A stretch of 64,000 nucleotides of DNA from a virus (taxonomy: Duplodnaviria; Heunggongvirae; Uroviricota; Caudoviricetes). Shown piece after piece: positions 3,009-56,123 of this stretch (position 1 is the stretch's first letter; each line of letters begins with the position of its first letter). Under the pieces are notes generated by a model. It had not been told where the DNA came from. It did no database searches and saw only the letters and a list, made by a program, of their open reading frames with translations. The position numbers and the translations under genes are program-made. The stretch lies in IMG/VR virus record IMGVR_UViG_3300032220_000751; one strand, 5' to 3'.

Positions 3009-3036
3009 TTAGAACACATATTACTAAGTTGATAAT
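3009..3036 (+). promoter_or_regulatory. candidate sigma70-like promoter TTAGAA-N16-GATAAT
   Basis: Hexamers read by eye in the 165-nt gap upstream of gene 3085. Confidence 0.25.
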
Positions 3037-3716: not shown

Positions 3717-5450
3717 ATGTTTTCTCATCCATTTTATTTCTTCTGGCAAAACAAGTCTCCGTTTTCCAATTGGTATATCCGGAACTTCAAAGTCAGAGAA
3801 ATGATCTTCAATTGCGTTGAGCAATACATGATGTACCAGAAGGCTGTGTTCTTTGGTGATTTGGAAACTGCTAAGCTTATCATGGCAGAATCCAAACCAA
3901 AGAAGCAGAAAGAACTGGGACGTCAGGTCAAAGGCTTCAATCGCATTGATTGGGATTCTGTAGTTGAGGATATCCTCTACACGGCTATCAAGGCCAAGTT
4001 CACCCAGCATCGTGATCTGGGTGAATTGATGCTAAGCATCACTGCGAAAGAATTCGTCGAAGCATCTCCGTATGACCGGATCTATGGTGTGCGATTGTCA
4101 ATGAATGACCCTCGCATCCAGTCAAAGAAATTATGGCTCGGCCTAAACAAGCTTGGGCGTGTGCTGACCCGAGTACGTAACTGGCTGTATGTCAAGAAGA
4201 AAGGAAAGAACATGATCGATCTGTCCCCGCATCATCCAGAAGTCATTATTCTGGATTTGACAGATGTGTTTGCCGATGCACAACGGCGGCTGGCACATAC
4301 GGGTGATGTGAATCTGCTGTTGCCCTCGATGGTCAGTAGCATCATGACGTGTGTGGAATGTCGTGATCCCGATATGACCCGGTTGGAAGTCTATGTCTCT
4401 GACTTGATCGAACAGTTCAAGAATGATGGCATGCCAACTGAGGATGGTGAAATTGCCGCAGCTATCGCTAAAGACATCGGACGTAAGCTTGTCTATGAGA
4501 TCGAGAAGATCGGCGGTTACGATGAGAACGATAATTTCGATTACGATGTCTATCGTGTGGAAATCTCCGGAGCTGTGGTACTGACTCGTCTGGATCCTGT
4601 GGGCGCTCGTGCTCAAGAGAAGAGGAAAGAATGGTTTCCTGATCCGGAAGCTGTTGGTAAATCGATTTCTTCAGGTAGCAGGGTTGACCATATGGTCATG
4701 GTCGATGACGACGGCAATCCAATCAAGACGTCTGTAGTGGATATCCCTGAACCCACTCAAGAACAGAAGGATCATATTGCTTCTTTCGAAGTTAAACTTC
4801 CTTCGCTTGAAGAAATGGAGAATCATCCGCATCAAGGATACTTCCAAGGCCAACACAATGTGCAATATGCTGCTAAGTTAGGAGAAGTAGTCACTCCTGA
4901 ACAGCAGCTGCAGAACTACGAAGCACATGAGCGTCGTGTGGTTATCGAGGAGAATGTCCCGGCTGCTGGTTTCCGTAGTCGTACGGAGTACGATCTCCCC
5001 AGTGAAGACTTTACTTCATCGACTGTTGAGTCCAATATCAGCAACAAAATCGATAAGATGCTTCATAGCCCTAAGTTCAATATGAAGTTTGCTCCTTGCG
5101 ATGATCTGGGAGAAATCTCTGTCAGATTGAACGGTCAAACCATTCAGAATCCAACACCTGAACAATTGTCCGAAGTTGCCAATAAGTTGGGTTTCGATGC
5201 AGCTGACGTCATCATGGGACAAGACAAAGGTTATCGTGAGGTTCCCTTGTCTGAAGTCAAAGAGTCTCCTTATAAAGAGATTCTCGACAATGCGTTCCAG
5301 GATCAGGAAAGGGTTATCATCAATGCAGCTCCACGCTACGTACCCCTTGGTATCGTAGACGGCGATCAACAACAACAGAAGTGGAAAGACACTACAACAG
5401 GGGAAGTGCTTACCAACGAAGAACGATTTAATCGAGTTTCAAAAGACTAA
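3717..5450 (+). CDS. NADAR (YbiA/DUF1768-like) domain protein with a ~400-aa C-terminal extension of unknown function
   Basis: N-terminal ~160 aa carry the NADAR hallmark (FFW..SPFSNWY...F...EQYMMYQKAVFFGD...LGRQVKGFNRIDWDSV...AKFTQ...L..T....VEASPYDRIYGV); the rest has no motif I recognise. Confidence 0.7.
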   Translation: MFSHPFYFFWQNKSPFSNWYIRNFKVREMIFNCVEQYMMYQKAVFFGDLETAKLIMAESKPKKQKELGRQVKGFNRIDWDSVVEDILYTAIKAKFTQHRDLGELMLSITAKEFVEASPYDRIYGVRLSMNDPRIQSKKLWLGLNKLGRVLTRVRNWLYVKKKGKNMIDLSPHHPEVIILDLTDVFADAQRRLAHTGDVNLLLPSMVSSIMTCVECRDPDMTRLEVYVSDLIEQFKNDGMPTEDGEIAAAIAKDIGRKLVYEIEKIGGYDENDNFDYDVYRVEISGAVVLTRLDPVGARAQEKRKEWFPDPEAVGKSISSGSRVDHMVMVDDDGNPIKTSVVDIPEPTQEQKDHIASFEVKLPSLEEMENHPHQGYFQGQHNVQYAAKLGEVVTPEQQLQNYEAHERRVVIEENVPAAGFRSRTEYDLPSEDFTSSTVESNISNKIDKMLHSPKFNMKFAPCDDLGEISVRLNGQTIQNPTPEQLSEVANKLGFDAADVIMGQDKGYREVPLSEVKESPYKEILDNAFQDQERVIINAAPRYVPLGIVDGDQQQQKWKDTTTGEVLTNEERFNRVSKD

Positions 5451-5742: not shown

Positions 5743-6510
5743 ATGGAAAAGAGATTGAAAATGAAGAAGGCGTCCTTCATTGTCTGCGAAGGCATGGATG
5801 GATCTGGTAAGACGACAGTGTCTAAGTATCTACTGGAGTTAATGGGTTTATTTGGCTATGATGTCAAGTGGACGCGTGAACCTGGTGGTACTCCACTGGC
5901 TGAAAGTATCCGTAACCTGATACTGACAACTGAGATGGATTCTACTACTGAACTTCTGCTGTTTAACGCAGCACGTCGTGATCATGTAGAAAACCTGATC
6001 AAGCCGTCTTTAGCAAAGGACATCACAGTGGTATCGGATCGCTTTGTGGATTCGACCATTGCTTACCAGTGCTACGCTAATCAGCGTTCACCTCTTCATC
6101 AAGTACTATCTCTGCACCAGACTTGTATCGATTTCGATCCTGACTATGTCATTTACCTTGACATTCTCCCTGAAGTAGCAGCAGCTCGTGCAAATCAGCG
6201 TGGCGCTGGTGACCGTTTCGACAACATGCCAGCCGACTATAAGAAGCGTCTGGAGATGGGGTACCAAGTAGGGATGCTCATGCATAAAGCTAGCACCTCT
6301 ACTGAAGTCGTTACCATCGATGCCAATCAAAACCTACTCGATGTATTTGAGCAAGTGTTTAATTGGTTTGTTCGCTACTACTGCGCCACGCATCAACCTG
6401 CAGCGTCATTCGTCTTTGATAATGAAAAGCATACTAAAGCGCTCGAAAACCCTGTACTCCAGGCGGCGTTAGAACAGCATCGTCAGCACTGGCGTCTTAA
6501 CTTTAGCTAA
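5743..6510 (+). CDS. tmk: thymidylate kinase (dTMP kinase) with ~50-aa C-terminal extension
   Basis: P-loop FIVCEGMDGSGKTT, then REPGGT, DRF.DSTIAYQ and LID region, collinear with E. coli Tmk; start chosen at ATG 5743 behind AGGAA (ORF opens at 5698). Confidence 0.85.
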   Translation: MEKRLKMKKASFIVCEGMDGSGKTTVSKYLLELMGLFGYDVKWTREPGGTPLAESIRNLILTTEMDSTTELLLFNAARRDHVENLIKPSLAKDITVVSDRFVDSTIAYQCYANQRSPLHQVLSLHQTCIDFDPDYVIYLDILPEVAAARANQRGAGDRFDNMPADYKKRLEMGYQVGMLMHKASTSTEVVTIDANQNLLDVFEQVFNWFVRYYCATHQPAASFVFDNEKHTKALENPVLQAALEQHRQHWRLNFS

Positions 6511-7335: not shown

Positions 7336-7350
7336 TTATTGGCAAAAATT

Positions 7351-7394
7351 AGAGGATGCTTGTATTCTTTTGAATAGAATGCAAGTATTCCTCT
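7351..7394 (+). terminator. imperfect ~17-bp hairpin, possible terminator or attenuator
   Basis: AGAGGATGCTTGTATTC ... GAATGCAAGTATTCCTCT with 2 mismatches and a bulge, followed by a T-rich stretch. Confidence 0.45.
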
Positions 7395-7395
7395 A

Positions 7396-7590
7396 GTGCC
7401 TTTATGTCTTTCATTTAGGAAGAGTATGTCTAATTTAGGTTTTATGTGGTTTAGTTTTGGTGTCATCGTTTTGATCATGTGGATTATCAAGATGTGTGAG
7501 AAACCAAAAGAACCTCCCAAACTCGATCCCAACACCCTGCCGCCAGAAGTGTTAGATGAAATCCGTAAGGAGAACAAACATGGCTTGTAA
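7396..7590 (+). CDS. small single-pass membrane protein (TM helix plus KPKEPPKLDP motif)
   Basis: RBS AGGAAGAG; hydrophobic helix FMWFSFGVIVLIMWII then a P/K-rich segment. Confidence 0.5.
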   Translation: MPLCLSFRKSMSNLGFMWFSFGVIVLIMWIIKMCEKPKEPPKLDPNTLPPEVLDEIRKENKHGL

Positions 7591-7609
7591 TGATGCTTTC
7601 GTGGAATCG

Positions 7610-7714
7610 ATGATTGTCCTCTATAGTCCTGTAGTGGCGGCAATCATCTTAACCGTGTTCACTTATGGTGCTTACCTGTTCCATAAGTACCTGAAACGTA
7701 AAGGATGGGCATGA
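7610..7714 (+). CDS. putative 34-aa membrane peptide
   Basis: ATG ORF translated by hand (MIVLYSPVVAAIILTVFTYGAYLFHKYLKRKGWA); below the ORF-track size cutoff; sits in a cluster of similar genes. Confidence 0.3.
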   Translation: MIVLYSPVVAAIILTVFTYGAYLFHKYLKRKGWA

Positions 7715-7923
7715 TTCAAAACGACCCACTCTTAACAGGTTTCTGCTATGGACTCCTGATTCTCTTTGTCATCTTCTTTGTGTTCTGGACTTGGATCTGG
7801 TTTATTGATCCTCCTAAGCCTCCTTCTTACTGGGAATGGCAGGCGACAAGACGGAAGTTCGATAGCGAGATGAAGAAGATCAAAGAAAGGAAAGAAGCAT
7901 GCCAGACGAAAGAGTCGTCCTAA
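7705..7923 (+). CDS. small single-pass membrane protein (TM helix plus DPPKPPSYWEW motif)
   Basis: RBS AAAGGA; TM helix; paralogous layout to 7396 and 7899. Confidence 0.5.
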   Translation: MGMIQNDPLLTGFCYGLLILFVIFFVFWTWIWFIDPPKPPSYWEWQATRRKFDSEMKKIKERKEACQTKESS

Positions 7924-8105
7924 TTCGCATGGGTAATGACTGGGATTGGTGGCAGTGGTTGTTGTTATTTGTTGTCAGTCTGGTTGCTACGCTTTGCATC
8001 ATTGTCTTCCCCGATAAGGGTCCTCGCATGGGTCCTGAAGTCAGGAAGATTTACAAGAGAAAGAAGATTAACAAGCTTAAAGCAAGGAGGCGCTATGGAC
8101 GTTAG
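7899..8105 (+). CDS. small single-pass membrane protein (TM helix plus PDKGPRMGP motif, basic C-terminus)
   Basis: RBS AAAGGAAAG; TM helix. Confidence 0.45.
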   Translation: MPDERVVLIRMGNDWDWWQWLLLFVVSLVATLCIIVFPDKGPRMGPEVRKIYKRKKINKLKARRRYGR

Positions 8106-8679
8106 TGCAACGATGGTGCTGACGGTTCTGGCCTGCGCCATCGTCATCATACTCTCAATTGCAGTAGGTGGTATCATCCGGGCCATGAACCCTAAAAGGA
8201 TGATTCAAGAATATCGCTTTGTGAAATTGCACGGCGAAAATCATCTACCCATGGTGAGTCAACGATCCACCGACGGTGTGACTTACAAAGTAGCTGTAGG
8301 TACAGAAGATCAATTCGATGCATGGATGTCGATGGGTGTTTTTGATGATGAATTTCCCTACTTCGATTTTGATTTCTTATTAGATCATCGTGGCTGGACG
8401 ATGTCTGACGGTAGCGTCTATATGGTCAACCGTAGTTCCAAAGACAACTACCATGAATATCAGAGCATCATGCATGATCTGATCAAGGAACACCAAAAGC
8501 TTTATGGCGATGAGATTGGCCTTGAATCAACGGGTATGTATATCCCCAGTTATTTACAAGCAGCCATGGAGTATGAATACGCCGATCGTTTCCCAGGGGA
8601 ATGGGAAAAGTTCAAAGGTGAAAAAGAAGCAAAGAACTACGTAGAACCCATTGACCATTTCGTCAAACAACTCGCTTAA
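8095..8679 (+). CDS. membrane-anchored hypothetical protein (194 aa)
   Basis: Strong RBS AAGGAGG 5 nt before ATG 8095; N-terminal TM helix; the ORF-track start 7936 is upstream and looks non-coding. Confidence 0.55.
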   Translation: MDVSATMVLTVLACAIVIILSIAVGGIIRAMNPKRMIQEYRFVKLHGENHLPMVSQRSTDGVTYKVAVGTEDQFDAWMSMGVFDDEFPYFDFDFLLDHRGWTMSDGSVYMVNRSSKDNYHEYQSIMHDLIKEHQKLYGDEIGLESTGMYIPSYLQAAMEYEYADRFPGEWEKFKGEKEAKNYVEPIDHFVKQLA

Positions 8680-8695
8680 CTCAAGGAGCATCAAC

Positions 8696-9688
8696 ATGCC
8701 TCGTACCCTGAAAGACCTGATCAGCAATTCCATCTCGCAATCCAAGGTGCCAACCTTCAACGACATCAAAGCACCAGCATCATCGAAACCCCTGCCCTGG
8801 GAAAACAAGCAATCTCGTCTGACTCCGGAACAAGAGTTCCAGAAGTCGCTGAAGAAAGACGACAAGCCTGCTACGGTTGACCGCAGTGGCCTGGAACAAG
8901 TGAGCGATCCGGTCATGAAAGAAAACCTCACGCGTCTGGCTGATGCTGCTGAACGTATCGTGGCCAAGAAGCCTACCATCAAGGCAGTGGTCAAGCCCAA
9001 GAAGAAGCCGATGGTTTCCAAGGGTAAGGTCAAGCCGATCGATAAGCCTGCTCCGAAGCGTGAATCGATCACCCCCAAGGCCAAACCTACCGTGATCAAG
9101 ACCAAGGCTGTGACGCCTATCAAGTCTGGTAAAATGTCGGTCGGTGGTTTCGTGCAAGAGCTTAACAAAGCTGTCGGTAACACCAACGTGACTGCGGCAC
9201 CGGAACAAAAGAAAGGGGATGTGAATGCAGGTCAAAAGAAGGCTGGTCCCGGTCGTCCGAAGAGTGAAGGTAAGACCGCAGCACAAAAGCCGGGTAAGAG
9301 TGCACCTGCTAAGGGGGCTCCGGTGGGTAAGGCAGCAGCTGATAAACAAGCAGCTGTGAAGAAGGAAGTCAACAAGCCCAAGACGATGAAGAAGATCATC
9401 GACGCGGTTTCCGATCGCAAAGCATCGCCCAAGGAAATCGGTAAGAAGGTCGCTGACATCGTCGTGGAAGCCAAGAACGTGGCTACTAACAAAGAGATCG
9501 TTATCAATGCAAAAAACACCCCGGTTCAAGACAAGAAGGTTCCGGCCAAAGCGCTTCAATCTGCAGAAAAGCCCGCACCGAAGAAAGTCGTTCACGGTAA
9601 GGGTAATGTGTCTGCGCATAGCAGCAAGGCAAAACCGGTTCAATCTGGCAAAGCAGCTGGCAAAGCTGGCGTGAAGGCTAAGAAGTAA
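8696..9688 (+). CDS. lysine/alanine/proline-rich basic protein, histone-H1-like (putative DNA-binding or nucleoid protein)
   Basis: RBS AAGGAG 7 nt before ATG 8696; ~25% Lys with KPxx/AAGK repeats (KAKPVQSGKAAGKAGVKAKK); GC-rich codon usage. Confidence 0.6.
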   Translation: MPRTLKDLISNSISQSKVPTFNDIKAPASSKPLPWENKQSRLTPEQEFQKSLKKDDKPATVDRSGLEQVSDPVMKENLTRLADAAERIVAKKPTIKAVVKPKKKPMVSKGKVKPIDKPAPKRESITPKAKPTVIKTKAVTPIKSGKMSVGGFVQELNKAVGNTNVTAAPEQKKGDVNAGQKKAGPGRPKSEGKTAAQKPGKSAPAKGAPVGKAAADKQAAVKKEVNKPKTMKKIIDAVSDRKASPKEIGKKVADIVVEAKNVATNKEIVINAKNTPVQDKKVPAKALQSAEKPAPKKVVHGKGNVSAHSSKAKPVQSGKAAGKAGVKAKK

Positions 9689-9708
9689 TTTTCACAAAAG
9701 GTGAGTAC

Positions 9709-9891
9709 ATGATGAAGAAAAGGAAACTGCGTTACAGACGCTGGCAAGTACCACGAGAAAGAGATCCGAACTTCCGTCGGATGTTTATCAAGTCGTGGCG
9801 TCGTGAACATTCTCGTATTCGTTATCCCTTGATGTTCCGGGAATGCTACATGATCCATCCTGAGTATTCCAGCTACCTGTTACACGGTTAA
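9709..9891 (+). CDS. arginine-rich small basic protein (60 aa)
   Basis: RBS AGGTGAG; MMKKRKLRYRRWQVPRERDPNFRRMF... Confidence 0.45.
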   Translation: MMKKRKLRYRRWQVPRERDPNFRRMFIKSWRREHSRIRYPLMFRECYMIHPEYSSYLLHG

Positions 9892-9926
9892 GTACTCACC
9901 ACCCTCAACTAAAAAGAAAGCTATTC

Positions 9927-10790
9927 ATGCTGAAAGTTCAAGTCGATTACCACGATGATGCTTTGTTCGACAGCACAGACTTCGAGCCGAAGATCATTAC
10001 TTTCCCTGGCGGGGAATGTCATGTGACTCTACCGGATGAATTGCTGGACAATCCACGTGCCCGTGCGTTTACCATTAAGACGCTGATCAAGAACGCCGAC
10101 CACATCATGCATTTGCTGATGGTTACAGACGCGATTCGTCGCCACTACGCGGGCTATCCGATTTTCCTACACATGCCGTACATTCCGTACGCACGTCAAG
10201 ACCGCGTAGCCAACCACGGCGAGTCTTTGTCGGCTCGTGTGTTCTGTGATCTGATCAATGCTCAGAACTACGAAGTCGTCAGCGTCGCTGATCCGCACAG
10301 CCCGGTGGTGGAAGCGCTGCTGAACCGCATCGACGTGGTCGATCCGATTTACATGGTCGAAGAAGTGCTGCAAAGCGATCTCTTCAAGGACGGTGTGGCG
10401 CTGGTTGCACCGGACGCAGGTGCCCGAAAGCGTGTGCTGAATATGGCCATGGAAGTCAACGTCGAAGACGTGATCTTTGCTGACAAGGTACGCGATACCA
10501 AGACTGGCAAGATCACCGGTACCGTGGTCAACAACGAAGTTCCTCAAGGTAAAGCTATTCTGGTCGTGGATGACATCTGTGACGGTGGTCGTACCTTCCT
10601 GGAACTGGGTAAGGTCTTAAAGGAGAAGACCGACCAACCGCTGTACCTGTACATTACCCATGGCATCTTCAGCAAAGGTCTGGAAGAACTCGGTAAGTAT
10701 TACGACCGTATCTTCACTGCCTACAACTGGAATGATGAAGAAGCCAACAATCCCCAACTGACCTTGATCAAGGAAGGAAATCTGCTGTGA
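9927..10790 (+). CDS. ribose-phosphate pyrophosphokinase (Prs) family protein; candidate ADP-ribose pyrophosphate synthetase of an NAD+ reconstitution pathway
   Basis: Prs motifs PYIPYARQDR and the nucleotide/PRPP loop VVDDICDGGRT; collinear with E. coli Prs; translationally coupled to the downstream NampT-like gene. Confidence 0.8.
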   Translation: MLKVQVDYHDDALFDSTDFEPKIITFPGGECHVTLPDELLDNPRARAFTIKTLIKNADHIMHLLMVTDAIRRHYAGYPIFLHMPYIPYARQDRVANHGESLSARVFCDLINAQNYEVVSVADPHSPVVEALLNRIDVVDPIYMVEEVLQSDLFKDGVALVAPDAGARKRVLNMAMEVNVEDVIFADKVRDTKTGKITGTVVNNEVPQGKAILVVDDICDGGRTFLELGKVLKEKTDQPLYLYITHGIFSKGLEELGKYYDRIFTAYNWNDEEANNPQLTLIKEGNLL

Positions 10791-12490
10791 GCGAACAACA
10801 AGAAAACATCGTCGAGAAAGTTGCCAATGGTCTCGTGCCATTCAACCTGGCAGACTTCTACAAGACTGGTCACCCAGCCATGTATCCTCAGGGTACTGAA
10901 ACCCTGGTGGCCAACTTTACCCCGCGCTCGGCCAAGTACGCTCCGGTACTGCCGGAATTGTTCGATAACAAGATCGTTTGGTTCGGCCTGCGTGGTTTCA
11001 TCCAGGAATGGCTGATCGATGTCTTCAATCGCGAGTTCTTCCAAAAACCCAAGGAAGAAGCCATCAAGAAGTACCGTCGTCGTATGGACACTTCTCTCGG
11101 TCCTGGTGCTGTCAGCATGAAGAAGCTGGAACTGCTCCATGATCTGGGTTACCTTCCGCTGGAAATTCGCGCCCTACCTGAAGGCGCTCGTGTGAACATC
11201 AAGGTACCGCCGGTACTGTTCATCAACACCGCTGGCCCTGAACTGTCGTGGGTGGCTACCTACTTCGAAACTCTGATGTCCTGCGAAAGCTGGAAAATCT
11301 CGACGGTCGGTACCATTGCTTTCGAGTTCCACAAGCTGCTGACCTACTTCGCTGTGTCCACTGGCGCGCCTCTGGACTTTGTGCGTTGGCAAGGTCACGA
11401 CTTCTCGTTCCGTGGCATGTCGGGTGTGCATGATGCAATGCGTACCTGCTCGGCTCACTTGCTGTCGTTCATGGGTACCGATACCATCCCGTCTATCGAC
11501 TACCTGGAAGACTACTACGACGCCGATTCCGACAAGGAACTGGTGGGTGGTTCGATCCCAGCATCGGAACACAGTGTGATGGCTCTGCGCATTCTGCTGA
11601 AGCTGAAGGAACTGGCCAAGCTGCCGGAGAACGCAGGTCTGACTCACAAGCAACTACGTAAGGCAGCTGAGCTGGAAGTGGTGCGTGACTATGCCATCAA
11701 GGAATACGACACTGGTCTGGTCTCCATGGTCTCGGATACCTTCGACTTCTGGAATGTGATCACTCACATCGCCAAGGTCCTGAAGCCTGAAATCATGCAA
11801 CGCAAGCCGGATGTGTTCGGTAATGCCAAGGTCGTCTTCCGTCCTGATTCGGGTGATCCAGTGTACATCCTGACCGGTTACAAGAACAGTGAAATCGTTG
11901 CTAATGGCGATGGTACTTTCACTGTCAATGCAACTGGCAGAGTCATCCAAGATCACGAGCGTCGTGGTGCTGTGGAATGCCTGTGGGATATCTTCGGTGG
12001 TACCGAAACCAGTCTCGGCTACAAGCTGCTGGATTCCCACGTCGGTCTGATCTACGGTGACTCGATCACTCTGCCGCGTGCTATGCGTATCCTGCGTCGT
12101 CTGCAAGACAAGGGCTTCGCATCCACCAACGTAGTCTTCGGTATCGGTTCGTACACTTACAACATGCTCTCCCGTGACGTCTTCGGTTGGGCCATGAAGG
12201 CGGTGTACGCGGTAGTCGATGGTGAGCCGGTTGAGATCTACAAGGATCCAGCAACTGACGACGGTATGAAGAAGTCGGCCAAGGGTCTGCTGCGTGTGGA
12301 TAAGGTAGGTAACAACTACTTCCTGACGGAGAACTGCACCCCGGAAGAGTTCGAAGGCGGTGAACTCAAGCCGGTGTTCCGTAATGGTGAGATGTTGGTC
12401 AAGCCTACCTTTAAGGAAGCCAAGGAACGTCTGCACCTTTCTTGGACGTGTCCGGAACCTAATAGCATCGTCTGGCAAGACGCTGCTTAA
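10787..12490 (+). CDS. nicotinamide phosphoribosyltransferase (NampT/NadV) family protein; alternatively Namat-like
   Basis: GTG start overlapping the Prs stop (GTGA), RBS AAGGAAGGAAA; NampT motifs DFYKTGH, LPLEIRALPEG, GHDFSFRG, PASEHS, VSDTFDFW, RPDSGDP, GDSIT, collinear with human NAMPT. Confidence 0.85.
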   Translation: MSEQQENIVEKVANGLVPFNLADFYKTGHPAMYPQGTETLVANFTPRSAKYAPVLPELFDNKIVWFGLRGFIQEWLIDVFNREFFQKPKEEAIKKYRRRMDTSLGPGAVSMKKLELLHDLGYLPLEIRALPEGARVNIKVPPVLFINTAGPELSWVATYFETLMSCESWKISTVGTIAFEFHKLLTYFAVSTGAPLDFVRWQGHDFSFRGMSGVHDAMRTCSAHLLSFMGTDTIPSIDYLEDYYDADSDKELVGGSIPASEHSVMALRILLKLKELAKLPENAGLTHKQLRKAAELEVVRDYAIKEYDTGLVSMVSDTFDFWNVITHIAKVLKPEIMQRKPDVFGNAKVVFRPDSGDPVYILTGYKNSEIVANGDGTFTVNATGRVIQDHERRGAVECLWDIFGGTETSLGYKLLDSHVGLIYGDSITLPRAMRILRRLQDKGFASTNVVFGIGSYTYNMLSRDVFGWAMKAVYAVVDGEPVEIYKDPATDDGMKKSAKGLLRVDKVGNNYFLTENCTPEEFEGGELKPVFRNGEMLVKPTFKEAKERLHLSWTCPEPNSIVWQDAA

Positions 12491-12503: not shown

Positions 12504-12534
12504 ACCGGTGTGGGTAACTCCACACCGGTTTTCA
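12504..12534 (+). terminator. rho-independent terminator
   Basis: ACCGGTGTGG-gtaact-CCACACCGGT then TTTT. Confidence 0.85.
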
Positions 12535-12550
12535 ACTTTACTTTACTCTC

Positions 12551-13150
12551 ATGGAAAACAATCTTATCGTATTAGACGGTGATGGTGTATTGGTCGACTA
12601 CCATCACGCCTATGCTCAGGCATGGGGTAAAGCATTCGGTGAAGTACCTGCAATCAAAGATCCCGATGCTTACTGGGCATTGGATCGTTACGATGTTCGT
12701 AAGCTTCATGGTGATGAACTGGATCACTTCAAGAAGCATATGGACTATGAATTCTGGGCTACCATGCCCGCCATGCCTGGTGCTGTAGAGGCATGTCAAA
12801 AACTGGTAGATGCAGGTTACAAATTGATCTGTGTAACCGCATTGGAAGATGAACACAAATCTGCGCGCTGGAAGAATCTGTTAGATCTGGGTATGCCTCT
12901 GGAAGGTATAGTTTGTACAGGACATGGGAATGATACGGCCAGTCCCAAGGCATCAGTCTTAAGTGTCTTGAATCCGGTGGCATTCGCAGATGACTTCGTG
13001 CACTATATGCGCGGCATTCCACCACACATCCATGCAGCTTTGATCATGCGTTCTAAGAACGGTACACCGAACGTCGGTCCTGATCTTAAGTTAGCTCATT
13101 CTCAACATGCTGATATTCTTAGCTTTGCGGAATATTGGGTCAATCGTTAA
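12551..13150 (+). CDS. HAD-superfamily hydrolase, 5'(3')-deoxyribonucleotidase (NT5C)-like
   Basis: Motif I IVLDGDGVLVD, motif II LICVT, motif III K, motif IV AFADDF; no obvious SD upstream. Confidence 0.65.
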   Translation: MENNLIVLDGDGVLVDYHHAYAQAWGKAFGEVPAIKDPDAYWALDRYDVRKLHGDELDHFKKHMDYEFWATMPAMPGAVEACQKLVDAGYKLICVTALEDEHKSARWKNLLDLGMPLEGIVCTGHGNDTASPKASVLSVLNPVAFADDFVHYMRGIPPHIHAALIMRSKNGTPNVGPDLKLAHSQHADILSFAEYWVNR

Positions 13151-13155
13151 CCCGG

Positions 13156-13187
13156 AAGGGGAGTTTTGCGACTCCCTTTCTTTTTTG
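13156..13187 (+). terminator. rho-independent terminator
   Basis: AAGGGGAGT-tttgcg-ACTCCCTT then TCTTTTTTGTC. Confidence 0.85.
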
Positions 13188-24089: not shown

Positions 24090-24473
24090 ATGCAATTCGA
24101 AAGCATGGTCAGGAAGCCTGAAGAAATCATTCCAGGGAATATTCTCTGGCGGGTTCAAGTCACTCTGAATGAAGACGGTAGCGTAAATGTTGCCGCCCCA
24201 TACAAAGTGATTCCTCGCACTGAAGCTAAGCAACTGTCGGATACTCAATATTTCGTCGGTATCCGTAACGTCATGGGCGGATTCATTATCCCTCTCGCCC
24301 TGGACGCATTTGCTGTTGGTCACAGTGAGGATTCAGATGAGTTTCGGTTCACTCATTCCCGGTTGTTCCGCAAACGTAAGGATGCGATCAACTACGGGCG
24401 TGAGATGCAATCCTATCAACCTCCCTTAGAAGAAATGAAGTATCATTTCACCATCAAAGGAGATGAAAAGTGA
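24090..24473 (+). CDS. hypothetical protein (127 aa)
   Basis: RBS AAGGAG; ORF. Confidence 0.55.
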   Translation: MQFESMVRKPEEIIPGNILWRVQVTLNEDGSVNVAAPYKVIPRTEAKQLSDTQYFVGIRNVMGGFIIPLALDAFAVGHSEDSDEFRFTHSRLFRKRKDAINYGREMQSYQPPLEEMKYHFTIKGDEK

Positions 24474-26173
24474 AAGCACCGAAACCCAAGTCAGAACCCA
24501 TCAAGGATTTCATGACAATGGCGCAAGTCATTGGCAAAGACACCCTGCCTGAAACATCCCAAAACAACAAGGAGCAACAAGCTATGCAAATGCAATCGAA
24601 TGTGAACATCATCGACACCGACTTCGTCAACCGCGACTGGCTGTGCCGTATCGATCCTGATGCCGAGATGCAAGCCAACATCGTGAATCTGATGGCAGAC
24701 CGCCGTCCGTTCACGGTCAAGGAAATCGGCGACGTCTTCGAATTCTTCGGCGACGCTGGTGATCGTGTGAAGTCCGCGCATGTCATGCTGCAGATGAATG
24801 CCAAGGGTTTCTTCAAGACCGTCTCCGGTGGCAACATCGAGATGTACATCCTGAAGGATCGTTTGCCTGGCATGGATCGCCCGAAGCAACCGAAGCTGTT
24901 CCGTACTCCTGATTACTTCGATCGTGATCCGATCGGCGAGATCAAGCGTGCTGATGGCGTCGACATGGCGATCTTCAAGATCCTGTTGTCCGATGGCGAA
25001 AAGCGCACCGCACAAGAACTGCGTGCTCTGCTCTATCCCTTCGGCTTCACGGCTAATGAAATCTCTGGCAAGCTGAAGACCCTGATGCTGGGGTCCAGTG
25101 GCGATGTCTGGATCGAACGCATCCAACGTGGTTCCGATGTCTGGTACACGGTCAAGAAGGGCTGGAACCTGGCTCGCTTCATCAAGGCACGCAAGGGCAA
25201 GCCATCCGTCGTTTACACGGGTGACGAGCCGGAACTGCCTGCAGCAAAGATCGATGACAAGCAAGAGTCTCTGACTCCGGCAGTCACCGGTCGTGCTGGT
25301 ACGCACGTGTCTGTCAGCGAAGTTCAAGCTGCATCTCAGGAGGAAGCTGTGGAAACCAACCAAGTCGACCTGGTCGTGACTGCCAAGGACACGATGGATC
25401 AAGCGATCTGGAAGGTTACGCAAGACCGCGCAACCTACCTGGTCTCTGAAGTCGCTGCTCTGATCGAAGACTTCGGCTTCAACAAGGGCACTGTCGGTGT
25501 GCGCATGGCCAAGCTGGCTGAAATGGGTTGGTTCACGCGTACTCCTGAGGGTCGTGCTTTCAAGTACACCATGGTGGAAGGTACTGCTTTCCCTATGGCG
25601 CAACTTGAAGTGGTCAAGCCGACTTCGCAAGTTCAGTCTGAACCTGCTGAAGGTAACAAGGTCGAAACCAAGGCACAAGAAGCCATCGTCACCACCAAGG
25701 CCGGTCCGAAGGTCGTGGCTCTGGATGAAGTCCAGAAACCGCGTATCAGCGTGACCGAACTGGCTCAAGAACTGGATGTGACGCCTACTGGCCTGATGTT
25801 CTACATCAAGTCGCGCGGTTTCACCGGTGTCCTGGACATCGATACCCAGTTGACCATCGAACACGCTGCTGCATTGCGTGTTAACTTCAACAAGAACGAT
25901 GCAAAGGAAATCGATATGGGTACTGTCACCAATCTGGCAGATGCAGTGAAGAACGACCAAGAACAACCGGCTCTGTTCACCATGATCGTCCAGATCAAGG
26001 GTGTGAACTTCAGCCTGGTTGAACTGAAGGAACTGACTGTGGAACTGGACGAAGCCATTTCGTTCCTGACCAAGGTCAAGTCCCTGGATGCGAAGATCAC
26101 CATCAAGACCATCCCGCTGTCGCTGGATGAAATGAAGGAACTCGCAGAACGCATCCGCGAACTGAAGCTGTAA
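24470..26173 (+). CDS. hypothetical acidic protein (567 aa) with three tandem winged-helix-like repeats and a C-terminal coiled coil
   Basis: GTG start overlapping the upstream stop (GTGA) behind AAAGGAG; internal ~65-aa repeats (FTVKEIGDVFEFFG.., TAQELRALLYPFGF.., ATYLVSEVAALIEDFGF..); ISVTELAQELDVTPTGLMFYIKSRG segment; GC-rich codons. Confidence 0.65.
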   Translation: MKAPKPKSEPIKDFMTMAQVIGKDTLPETSQNNKEQQAMQMQSNVNIIDTDFVNRDWLCRIDPDAEMQANIVNLMADRRPFTVKEIGDVFEFFGDAGDRVKSAHVMLQMNAKGFFKTVSGGNIEMYILKDRLPGMDRPKQPKLFRTPDYFDRDPIGEIKRADGVDMAIFKILLSDGEKRTAQELRALLYPFGFTANEISGKLKTLMLGSSGDVWIERIQRGSDVWYTVKKGWNLARFIKARKGKPSVVYTGDEPELPAAKIDDKQESLTPAVTGRAGTHVSVSEVQAASQEEAVETNQVDLVVTAKDTMDQAIWKVTQDRATYLVSEVAALIEDFGFNKGTVGVRMAKLAEMGWFTRTPEGRAFKYTMVEGTAFPMAQLEVVKPTSQVQSEPAEGNKVETKAQEAIVTTKAGPKVVALDEVQKPRISVTELAQELDVTPTGLMFYIKSRGFTGVLDIDTQLTIEHAAALRVNFNKNDAKEIDMGTVTNLADAVKNDQEQPALFTMIVQIKGVNFSLVELKELTVELDEAISFLTKVKSLDAKITIKTIPLSLDEMKELAERIRELKL

Positions 26174-26259: not shown

Positions 26260-26285
26260 TGTGAAATTTACAGACTTGCTATATG
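26256..26285 (+). promoter_or_regulatory. candidate sigma70-like promoter TTGATG-N18-TATATG
   Basis: Hexamers immediately after the terminator, upstream of gene 26315. Confidence 0.3.
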
Positions 26286-26314
26286 GTCTGACTAATAACC
26301 TAGAAGGAGTCACT

Positions 26315-27460
26315 ATGGCTTTGATTTCCCAATCAGTAGACGGCGAGCGTCTGGATCAGCTGGTGCAAAACCGCATCAACACCAATGAAATTATGGACCG
26401 TATCCGTCAGATCAAGAAAGAATCTGAAGGTGTGATCGGTGGTCCTGATGGTGAGTACATCGCCTTATCCGCACTGTTCAAAGAGATCGCTGATATTGGC
26501 ATTGATGAGATGGCCAAAGCCGCTGCAGTCCATGTCAAGCGCAAACCGCCAATGAGTGAGGTGGAGTTTGCTAAGCTGTTCTCCAGTGGTAACGATGAAA
26601 GCGAGAAAAGCGAGAAAGATGACTTCATCGTGAATACGCATCGTGATGATCATAAGGACGGTGGTTTCGCATTCACTCCCGGATATTCGCAAGAAGAGTT
26701 CGATGCATTGCCGCCAGCTACTCAGATCCTTCGTATTGCTGATGAGACTGTACGCGTTATCGTAAGTGATAAAGTACCCGCTAATGGTAAAGAATCGGTG
26801 ATCCACACCATGCAGTCTTTACAATGGGTTAGTAAGTTCGTACAACTGATTGAGAAGTATCTGGGCGTTCAGTATACTGAGAAGTTCACATCGATTCTCG
26901 GTTCATATGCTGAACAATTGGAGATCTATCAGAATAACAAAAACAGCGCTCTATGGATGCCTGTTCAGATGGTACGTAATGAAATCGAAGACGAGATCAA
27001 GATGATCATGAACATCCATCCGGATAAGATTCCTGAACTAACCAAACATGAACCCAAGATCGACATCGTCATACGTTCCAATGGACGTCAACAAGGCGCT
27101 AGCTATCTGTCTAACACCATTTATGATTCTCTGAAGATATTGGGTTATCGCAATCTCAGTCAGAACAATCTGCAAGAAGGTAACGGTAGTATTCACAGTC
27201 ATCACCGCACGAACTACGAACGCAATGGCATAGCTGTTCAGTATCTACTGGAAATACCGATCACTATCGAAATTGAACAGTTCGATAATGAAGACAAGCA
27301 GTGGCGTGATGGTAAGGGTAATGTGATCGGTGAGCGTAAAGTCAAATTCGATTTTGATGTCGATACCTCTAACCTGCCAGAACATCTGAAAGCACATGGG
27401 ACTTTGGTTGATATTCCCAAAGTCTGGCCGAGTACTACTGACACTAACAATAAAGGATAA
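26315..27460 (+). CDS. hypothetical protein (381 aa)
   Basis: ATG behind GAAGGAG (the ORF opens at GTG 26261). Confidence 0.6.
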   Translation: MALISQSVDGERLDQLVQNRINTNEIMDRIRQIKKESEGVIGGPDGEYIALSALFKEIADIGIDEMAKAAAVHVKRKPPMSEVEFAKLFSSGNDESEKSEKDDFIVNTHRDDHKDGGFAFTPGYSQEEFDALPPATQILRIADETVRVIVSDKVPANGKESVIHTMQSLQWVSKFVQLIEKYLGVQYTEKFTSILGSYAEQLEIYQNNKNSALWMPVQMVRNEIEDEIKMIMNIHPDKIPELTKHEPKIDIVIRSNGRQQGASYLSNTIYDSLKILGYRNLSQNNLQEGNGSIHSHHRTNYERNGIAVQYLLEIPITIEIEQFDNEDKQWRDGKGNVIGERKVKFDFDVDTSNLPEHLKAHGTLVDIPKVWPSTTDTNNKG

Positions 27461-41059: not shown

Positions 41060-41242
41060 ATGAGCAGGACGAAGAAGGGTGGTAAATCATTCGGACACGA
41101 GTTTTGGGCAGGGCGTGGTGGTGGTATCGTTGACGGCTGGTCCGCTGGCGGTCACACCTCCAAGAAGTACAAAACCCTGACGCACAAGCGTGAACGTAGA
41201 TTGCAGACCATCGACCTGCGCAAGCAATTGAAGGACGTGTAA
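41060..41242 (+). CDS. small basic protein (60 aa)
   Basis: RBS AAGGAG; ORF. Confidence 0.45.
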   Translation: MSRTKKGGKSFGHEFWAGRGGGIVDGWSAGGHTSKKYKTLTHKRERRLQTIDLRKQLKDV

Positions 41243-53873: not shown

Positions 53874-54068
53874 TTGAAAATCCGCAAACGTAAAAGACTG
53901 CTTGACTTGACTGCCATCCCCTTCATTCAAAACAAATACGATCTGCGTTTCTACGTAGACAGGAATTACTATCGCTTTGTCAAGAACTTGGGATGGCAAA
54001 AATCTAAGCGTGTGTTTGGCATCACTGCTCGCAATCTCGTGGCGGTGCCATTACTTAAGGTGGAGTGA
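53874..54068 (+). CDS. small basic protein with N-terminal KIRKRKR motif (64 aa)
   Basis: TTG start behind GTGAGG; no in-frame ATG; the N-terminus aligns with the two following genes. Confidence 0.45.
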   Translation: MKIRKRKRLLDLTAIPFIQNKYDLRFYVDRNYYRFVKNLGWQKSKRVFGITARNLVAVPLLKVE

Positions 54069-54376
54069 TGAATATCCGTAAACGTAAGCGCAAGGTCGAA
54101 GCTTCTACTTGGTTTAACAGGATCGTTCACTATCCTGATGTAGATGCACCCACTCAAACAGCGCAATGCACCCAGCACAACTTTGAATGGAAGGATAAAC
54201 ATTCGCAGCGTGCTGAGAACAAATACGAGCGTCAAAGCTTGCGTAATTTCCGTCGGCATGGGAAATGGTGGAAGTGGCGCCCCTATGGTACTCTTTCTCC
54301 AGTGACTTACTGGAAGAGAACCAAGAAACGCTTAGCTGAAGAAAAGAAGGCGCTGGCTCAAGCAACTTCAGTCTAA
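54068..54376 (+). CDS. basic Trp-rich protein with N-terminal NIRKRKRK motif (102 aa)
   Basis: ATG overlapping the upstream stop; pI clearly basic. Confidence 0.5.
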   Translation: MNIRKRKRKVEASTWFNRIVHYPDVDAPTQTAQCTQHNFEWKDKHSQRAENKYERQSLRNFRRHGKWWKWRPYGTLSPVTYWKRTKKRLAEEKKALAQATSV

Positions 54377-55752: not shown

Positions 55753-55948
55753 AAACAATCAATCTCTTGTGCGCCTTAAGTTCTTGGTGCATGGAGAAAT
55801 CCAAGCTTTGATGAAACGGTTCCCTTACCGTCGCATTGAAGACCTGATAGCTTATCACATGGTTCGTAGTGATCAAGTCATTGTGACCAAGATGATGAGC
55901 ACTTATTTGAAACAACTACCGGTACCTAGGAGAATCAGAAATGGCTAA
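55724..55948 (+). CDS. hypothetical basic protein (74 aa)
   Basis: ORF overlapping the upstream 3' end by 29 nt; alternative start at 55688. Confidence 0.35.
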   Translation: MNTRQLKRYKNNQSLVRLKFLVHGEIQALMKRFPYRRIEDLIAYHMVRSDQVIVTKMMSTYLKQLPVPRRIRNG

Positions 55949-56123
55949 AGAACAACAACCTCATCGTGTCCTGAACGGCATCTTCAGCAAGGTCATCGAT
56001 CAGAGCGTTAAAGACAAGGGCGTCAGTCCCGGCCTAGCCAAGAAACAGCTGGTGGAGTCGTTCCCTCAGGCTAAGCCCAAGCACAAGCCGAAATCCAAGA
56101 AACCGCAGCAACAGGTGCGTTAA
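55941..56123 (+). CDS. small basic protein (60 aa)
   Basis: RBS TAGGAGAA; ORF. Confidence 0.45.
   Translation: MAKEQQPHRVLNGIFSKVIDQSVKDKGVSPGLAKKQLVESFPQAKPKHKPKSKKPQQQVR

Follow-up and report, generated by a model that had tools for sequence, protein, structure and literature searches.

The open reading frame (ORF) referred to here as p1 occupies positions 8696–9688 on the plus strand of a 64,000-nucleotide stretch of viral DNA (IMG/VR record IMGVR_UViG_3300032220_000751; hereafter the window), and encodes a protein of 330 residues. We find p1 to be a genuine orphan, specific to the lineage of an uncultivated jumbo phage with a genome of about 310 kb. For its product, we tentatively favour a polycationic and largely disordered protein whose binding to a polyanion would be electrostatic and independent of sequence. 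In charge as well as in predicted disorder, the protein has the properties of polycationic disordered nucleic-acid binders. The phage origin assumed in a first-pass annotation of this DNA is supported by the source contig, which is 310 kb long and phage-like, and in which the recognisable genes are of phage type.

The ATG codon of p1 is preceded, at a distance of 7 nt, by a Shine-Dalgarno sequence (AAGGAG, 8683–8688, plus strand) that can be read directly from the DNA, and the protein ends in KAKPVQSGKAAGKAGVKAKK. Independent gene callers applied to ENA and JGI contigs give identical genes of 330 and 60 codons for p1 and the following ORF, p2. Both frames, their coordinates and the C-terminal sequence of p1 agree with the first-pass annotation. 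When codon log-odds are modelled on 16 other genes of the window, p1 scores +0.53 in the annotated frame as compared with −0.22 to −0.86 in the other five, which is level with the best enzyme genes, i.e., prs, NAMPT and thyA. Coding on the opposite strand was considered and rejected: minus-strand ORFs of 287 and 210 codons run across the region, and since their codon scores are negative, they are regarded as mirror artefacts of the AAG/GCN-rich plus frame. An RNA element was likewise rejected, as no Rfam family reaches the gathering threshold in the window, and the window holds no tRNA gene. Among the 101 plus-strand genes of the window, which form the basis of all rankings given here, p1 is seventh in guanine-plus-cytosine (GC) content (52.3%) and sixth in its use of the window's preferred codons (0.82 on an index similar to the codon adaptation index). 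The gene is thus probably well expressed, and its high use of preferred codons fits an abundant, stoichiometric binder. GC-rich codons of a highly expressed appearance had been ascribed to both genes, which is correct for p1 but not for p2, where the GC content is 46.7% and the index 0.66 (rank 86).

Lysine accounts for 67 of the 330 residues (20.3%), which is less than the first estimate of about 25%, but still the highest share among the 101 genes (window mean 7.1%, standard deviation 3.1). Alanine (12.7%), valine (9.7%) and proline (9.1%) are also frequent, and the protein has a mass of 35 kDa, an isoelectric point (pI) of 10.3 and a net charge of +46. The KPxx and AAGKxxK repeats that had been reported could not be recovered. 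Tandem Repeats Finder detects no tandem repeat in the DNA between 8600 and 9950, the best off-diagonal self-alignment of the protein is at shuffle level (42 versus 40.2 ± 4.8), AAGK occurs once, and the motifs KPAA, KPVA, AKKA, AAKK, PAKKA, SPKK and TPKK do not occur in p1. The only enriched dipeptides are KP, at about twice the expected frequency (12 observed versus 6.1 expected, p about 0.007), and GK (9 versus 4.0). Basic residues show no periodic spacing, and their slight depletion at lags 2–3 indicates that they are spread evenly along the chain rather than clustered. The signal in p1 is therefore a compositional bias and not a repeat array. Neither a signal peptide nor a hydrophobic segment is present (the highest hydropathy over 21 residues is 0.31), and p1, lacking such a segment, is not an envelope protein. 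TonB/TolA-like proteins, which span the envelope, have a membrane anchor at the N-terminus and a Pro/Lys-rich spacer; such an identity was rejected with reference to the missing membrane anchor or hydrophobic segment and the absence of a Pfam match.

Because no alignment could be built for p1, AlphaFold2 was run on the single sequence. The resulting model consists of helix and coil only, with no β-strand, and has a mean predicted local distance difference test (pLDDT) value of 60.6, with 234 of the 330 residues below 70. Residues 1–90 (8696–8965) are of mixed charge and nearly neutral (net charge per residue +0.02), and include an amphipathic helix at residues 72–90 (pLDDT 81–91). They are followed by the most basic of the disordered stretches, residues 91–147 (8966–9136), with 19 Lys/Arg versus two Asp/Glu, nine prolines, most of the KP dipeptides of the protein, and pLDDT values of about 50. 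A weaker helix is predicted at residues 149–160, and three confident helices (residues 211–225, 228–238 and 245–273; pLDDT 87–94) make up the segment 211–273 (9326–9514), for which neither sequence nor fold searches gave a match. The C-terminal residues 274–330 (9515–9685) form a basic disordered tail composed of Lys, Ala, Pro, Val, Ser and Gly, with 14 Lys/Arg versus two Asp/Glu. Values of pLDDT are below 50 over most of residues 94–145, 165–210 and 275–330. A charge-hydropathy plot agrees with this layout in that the whole protein falls on the disordered side, as do all segments except residues 148–165 and 228–273. Nearly all of the excess charge resides in three disordered stretches, with net charges per residue of +0.30, +0.16 and +0.21, as compared with +0.14 overall.

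Two local features of p1 deserve mention. The first is a Gly-Arg-Pro core at residues 186–188 (9251–9259; context KKAGPGRPKSEGK). AT-hooks consist of such a core with basic flanks, usually in several copies. Here the core is present as a single copy, the preceding arginine of the RGRP form is absent, no AT-hook model matches, and GRP appears in 4.1% of shuffled p1 sequences, which makes it a weak lead. The second is the helix at residues 245–273, in which hydrophobic residues occupy six of the nine heptad a/d positions. In the predicted model this helix is a possible oligomerisation core, and self-association is plausible. Residues 228–260 bear what we take to be a superficial likeness to the N-terminal helices of HU; an HU/IHF or helix-hairpin-helix assignment was rejected for this segment, with no match in Pfam or the PDB and no β-arms in the model.

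Based on this anatomy, a mode of action can be outlined in which three long, basic and proline-punctuated disordered stretches, interrupted by short amphipathic helices (residues 72–90, 149–160 and 211–273), would engage the ligand. The ligand would most likely be DNA, with RNA as a possibility. The helical islands may allow self-association, such that one particle could bridge or condense several nucleic-acid segments, and nucleoid proteins that combine a coiled coil with a basic tail offer a model for this type of bridging. Production of p1 would probably take place in early or mid infection, together with that of genes for salvage of nicotinamide adenine dinucleotide (NAD+).

No relatives of p1 were recovered. 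A search of 5.8 billion proteins returned a single match, namely the same protein on the JGI contig Ga0480284_0000014 (310,154 bp), where it is only 313 residues long because the contig starts inside p1. An exhaustive phmmer search of 1.84 billion cluster representatives retrieved p1 itself and nothing else, and there was no match by tblastn in 50,697 records of cultured phages or in a scan of IMG/VR viral contigs. Pfam, PHROGs, NCBIfam and PADLOC provide no family for p1 even at lenient thresholds (E ≤ 10), the Pfam entry DUF4777 being dismissed as noise (14.7 bits versus a cut-off of 34.4). Searches of PDB sequences with the entire protein and with sub-segments gave nothing significant, and Foldseek returned no match at E ≤ 0.001 against the PDB and BFVD (best value 0.5). 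The locus is present in several JGI and ENA metagenome assemblies, the source environments of the phage being JGI samples 3300043572, 3300043573 and 3300032292 and ENA analyses ERZ28593706 and ERZ28593723. Since the contigs compared are 100% identical to the window across the locus, they carry no information on the ratio of nonsynonymous to synonymous substitutions, evolutionary rate or repeat number for p1. Position 1 of Ga0480284_0000014 corresponds to window position 8729, across which an independent ENA scaffold runs without interruption; this is compatible with a genome that is circular, or circularly permuted, and that was cut arbitrarily in assembly. A complete orphan among billions of proteins, with a biased composition and no fold match, might also be an ORF of low complexity that is evolutionarily young or drifting fast and serves little or no specific function, i.e., a near-neutral gene. 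We consider this quite improbable in view of the top-tier codon adaptation, the canonical ribosome-binding site, the intact frame of 993 nt and the confidently predicted helices.

The first-pass annotation likened p1 to bacterial H1-like nucleoid proteins of the AlgP/Hc1 type. The likeness is real insofar as p1 is polycationic, rich in Lys, Ala, Pro and Val, and mostly disordered, but it does not extend to kinship, for which family models (E ≤ 10), motifs and homologues are all lacking; the resemblance to H1-like proteins is physico-chemical only. AlgP/PhaF of Pseudomonas is similar to p1 in size (352 residues in AlgP versus 330) and charge (+55 in AlgP versus +46), and in combining helical segments with long Lys/Ala/Pro-rich disordered regions. 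In AlgP, tandem KPAA repeats, 25 of which are perfect, form a block of 154 residues located entirely in the C-terminal half, and the Lys/Ala/Pro-rich tail binds DNA without sequence specificity (PMC9239181). Unlike AlgP, p1 has its basic stretches interleaved with helices, contains neither KPAA or KPVA motifs nor any tandem repeat, is only 12.7% alanine, and has much Val, Thr, Ser and Gly. Membership in the AlgP/PhaF family is thus not supported, either by a KPAA-type array or by sequence homology in the two large protein searches.

The copy of p1 on the JGI contig is named “heparin binding hemagglutinin HbhA”. As for p1, mycobacterial HbhA and the C-terminal tail of HupB/MDP1 pair a helical, possibly coiled-coil part with a basic Lys/Pro/Ala tail, and in HbhA, DNA binding irrespective of sequence requires the tail, which is also sufficient for it (PMC10665949). 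HbhA differs in being 199 residues long, in having a hydrophobic segment near the N-terminus, and in carrying five AKKA and two AAKK motifs within a 39-residue tail. None of these motifs, nor PAKKA, occurs in p1, which also lacks the hydrophobic segment and matches no NCBIfam HbhA model at E ≤ 10. Given the missing motifs and hydrophobic segment, the HbhA label looks like a compositional match and not homology.

The same proteins show that DNA is not the only polyanion to be considered. AlgP localises to polyphosphate granules and binds polyphosphate (PMC9239181), HbhA also binds sulfated glycans, and AKKA motifs are found in RplV, a ribosomal protein that binds 23S ribosomal RNA (PMC10665949). 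Because AlgP, the classic bacterial H1-like protein, resides at such granules and AKKA occurs in an rRNA-binding protein, RNA and polyphosphate are real alternatives to DNA, and a disordered region that is polycationic is in itself hardly selective. The protein could accordingly act on ribosomal or messenger RNA, in a takeover of translation or as an RNA chaperone or condensate component, or on polyphosphate granules. We find this rather unlikely, since searches of Pfam, NCBIfam and PDB sequences reveal no RNA-binding domain and no similarity to ribosomal proteins in p1, and the genomic context points to neither translation nor polyphosphate.

Among phages, the idea of an H1-like DNA compactor is not new. 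The metagenomic jumbo “moraphages” encode H1-like proteins of the PF07432 type, and a role in phage DNA compaction has been put forward for them (PMC12619734). Those proteins match PF07432, whereas p1 matches neither this family, that of chlamydial Hc1, nor Hc2, nor any other Pfam model at E ≤ 10 apart from the sub-threshold DUF4777. What is new in the present case is a family-less and non-repetitive variant with interleaved helices. A precedent for an early phage protein that coats DNA non-specifically is MotB of phage T4, a tight, non-specific DNA binder that is made early, co-purifies with H-NS, and benefits fitness with no clear change in the transcriptome of the phage (PMC7827196). Unlike p1, a mostly disordered orphan, MotB is predicted to fold into KOW and OB-fold domains and is conserved across the Tevenvirinae. 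The C-terminal domain of eukaryotic linker histone H1 is similar to p1 in being disordered and rich in Lys, Ala and Pro, with KP, TPK and KAKP-type strings. However, p1 has a lower charge density and no winged-helix globular domain, and membership in the H1/H5 family finds no support in PF00538, PDB sequence or fold matches, or in the strand-free model.

The genes that surround p1 bear on when it is expressed. All window genes lie on the plus strand, and the gaps around p1 and p2 are 16, 20 and 35 nt, with 20 nt between the two. The 35-nt gap leads directly from p2 into prs (ribose-phosphate pyrophosphokinase, 9927–10790), which is followed by NAMPT of NAD+ salvage (10787–12490) and a HAD/NT5C phosphatase (12551–13150). 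The gene block containing p1 is opened by a 90-nt gap (7336–7425), where a sigma-70-like promoter candidate, TTGGCA-18-TATTCT, is found at 7339–7368 as a consensus match. From this gap onwards there is no convincing plus-strand terminator until a hairpin at about 12504–12529 or at 13154–13181, the latter a strong intrinsic-terminator-like hairpin with a T-run that is the likely end of the transcription unit. Thus, p1 is probably co-transcribed with the NAD+ salvage genes, which in turn suggests that it would be made in early or middle infection and not as part of a virion module.

This context also bears on whether p1 could be a virion component. A packaged internal or ejected protein, similar to the internal proteins of T4, might neutralise the charge of capsid DNA or protect the DNA on entry, and a very basic, disordered and apparently highly expressed protein would suit such a role. 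Jumbo phages, moreover, scatter virion genes around the genome. On the other hand, p1 lies among genes for nucleotide and NAD metabolism (tmk, prs, NAMPT, HAD phosphatase, thyA and ligases) rather than structural genes, and no structural-protein family matches it, which makes a virion role unlikely. A tail fibre or other structural protein was rejected on similar grounds (no repeats, no structural-family match, wrong neighbourhood).

Upstream, a 577-residue protein with an N-terminal NADAR domain is encoded at 3717–5450, and together with prs, NAMPT and the HAD/NT5C phosphatase it makes up a gene set related to NAD+ and ADP-ribose. Sets of this kind have been linked to the countering of NAD-depleting or ADP-ribosylating defences. 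No nicotinamide mononucleotide adenylyltransferase was recognised among the window genes scanned. Since p1 directly precedes prs and NAMPT and follows the NADAR-domain gene at a distance of 3.2 kb, the question arises whether it could be a protein-interaction hub or counter-defence factor tied to these genes, e.g., a decoy or scaffold. This is highly improbable: of 80 other viral loci, 77 retain the prs–NAMPT pair, yet no homologue of p1 or p2 and no recurrent Lys-rich protein is found there, and PADLOC gives no match. Neither counterparts of p1 or p2 nor a recurrent Lys-rich neighbour were found next to prs–NAMPT in the 80 viral contigs or in the Pseudomonas phages PA1C and UAVern. Because of this absence at other prs–NAMPT loci, the two genes are regarded as lineage-specific additions beside a widespread module.

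The second ORF, p2 (9709–9891, plus strand), is a probable gene that encodes a 60-residue orphan rich in aromatic residues. With 21.7% Arg and 6.7% Lys (28.3% combined, close to the roughly 30% first noted), the protein has a pI of 11.1. At −0.004, the codon score of p2 exceeds those of the other five frames, though weakly, and resembles that of other mini-ORFs, the AlphaFold2 model is helical and of low confidence (pLDDT 59), and searches of phages, viral contigs, protein databases and the PDB returned only p2 itself or noise. The gene is bracketed base for base by a perfect 9-nt inverted repeat. The 5′ arm, GGTGAGTAC (9700–9708), begins 11 nt past the p1 stop codon, contains the p2 Shine-Dalgarno sequence GGTGA and extends to the last base before the start codon, while the 3′ arm, GTACTCACC (9892–9900), starts at the first base after the stop codon. 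Among the 101 genes, p2 alone has complementarity of more than 7 nt between its start and stop flanks, and the bracketing stem forms in the minimum-free-energy fold (z = −2.2). Such a stem would hide the ribosome-binding site of p2 and could be opened by a ribosome that finishes translation of p1. In this way the translation of p2 may be linked to that of p1, a hint of coupling that provides no evidence for a functional system; alternatively, the repeat could mark where a mini-cassette was inserted.

The proposal that p1 and p2 constitute a dedicated two-component histone-like system for DNA compaction or shielding draws on their adjacency across the 20-nt gap and on the possible coupling of their translation, and our analysis yields nothing beyond these two points in its favour. 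Neither gene is found anywhere else, including the 80 other prs–NAMPT loci, which means that co-occurrence is not demonstrable. The codon adaptation of p2 is below average and its structural model is of low confidence. Adjacency in itself means little, because small, very basic ORFs, of which p2 is one, are scattered at several places in the window, and a two-component system is very improbable. Further mini-ORFs with pI above 10.5 are located at 41060–41242, 53874–54068, 54065–54376, 55941–56123 and other positions. Two of these (MKIRKRKRLL... and MMNIRKRKRKVE...) share with p2 (MMKKRKLRYRR...) a run of Arg/Lys at the N-terminus, and pairwise comparison shows no other significant similarity among these ORFs.

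Several points weigh against electrostatic nucleic-acid binding by p1. With no homologue and no variation among the recovered contigs, the functional assignment draws solely on composition. Motifs that are important in known DNA-binding tails are absent, and the charge density is moderate (+0.14 overall and +0.16 to +0.30 in the basic segments). Proteins of the AlgP/HbhA type also bind RNA, polyphosphate or sulfated glycans, such that DNA is not the sole candidate, and the expression timing is deduced solely from matches to promoter and terminator consensus sequences. Even so, a virion protein, an NAD-linked counter-defence factor and a near-neutral gene are each less likely than a polyanion binder. 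In its boldest form, the proposal would make p1 a family-less, convergently evolved analogue of linker histones, made early and in abundance, that would coat DNA and bridge it, with the effect either of silencing or compacting the nucleoid of the host or of keeping nucleases away from the phage genome; p2 would be made in step as ribosomes unmask its ribosome-binding site. This we regard as a long shot. If p1 does coat DNA, it would show that chromatin-like proteins can arise from scratch in large phages, without known histone-like ancestry, and a protein-coat strategy would join the phage nucleus, base modification and H-NS antagonists among the means by which phages manage or protect DNA. 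As it stands, p1 is a clean case of a well-expressed, compositionally extreme orphan gene, and a reminder that names given in databases, “HbhA” and “H1-like” among them, can reflect composition alone.

Most genes of the window have no database match, and for most of the large ORFs scanned there was no match in PHROGs or Pfam. Besides the genes already described, those recognised include tmk (thymidylate kinase, 5743–6510), thyA (thymidylate synthase), an NAD-dependent DNA ligase and an RNA ligase, with a gene of the T4_Y16D family just outside the window. The sole nucleotide match to a cultured phage is with Pseudomonas phage UAVern and covers 321 nt of the NAMPT gene. When cultured phages were searched by tblastn, two large orphans nearby (1635–2918 and 26261–27460) gave no match. 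The lineage to which the phage belongs appears to be undescribed. Directly upstream of p1, five consecutive small ORFs (54, 44, 70–72, 68 and 194 codons; 7426–8679) each encode a single hydrophobic helix. None has a database relative, and the 194-residue membrane protein is an orphan with no phage relatives. An intergenic motif, [AG]A[CT]A[CT][AT]TAT[CT]A[CT]TA, is conserved on the plus strand at 3013, 14086, 33771, 39453 and 52372, approximately 25–75 nt upstream of gene starts and in two cases just past a hairpin. It is absent directly upstream of p1, and probably represents a phage-specific class of promoter. Finally, a 567-residue orphan at 24470–26173, for which the other strand holds a long mirror ORF, shows weak winged-helix matches to PaaX-like and HTH_24 models, both below the curated cut-off, and is a possible transcription regulator of the phage.

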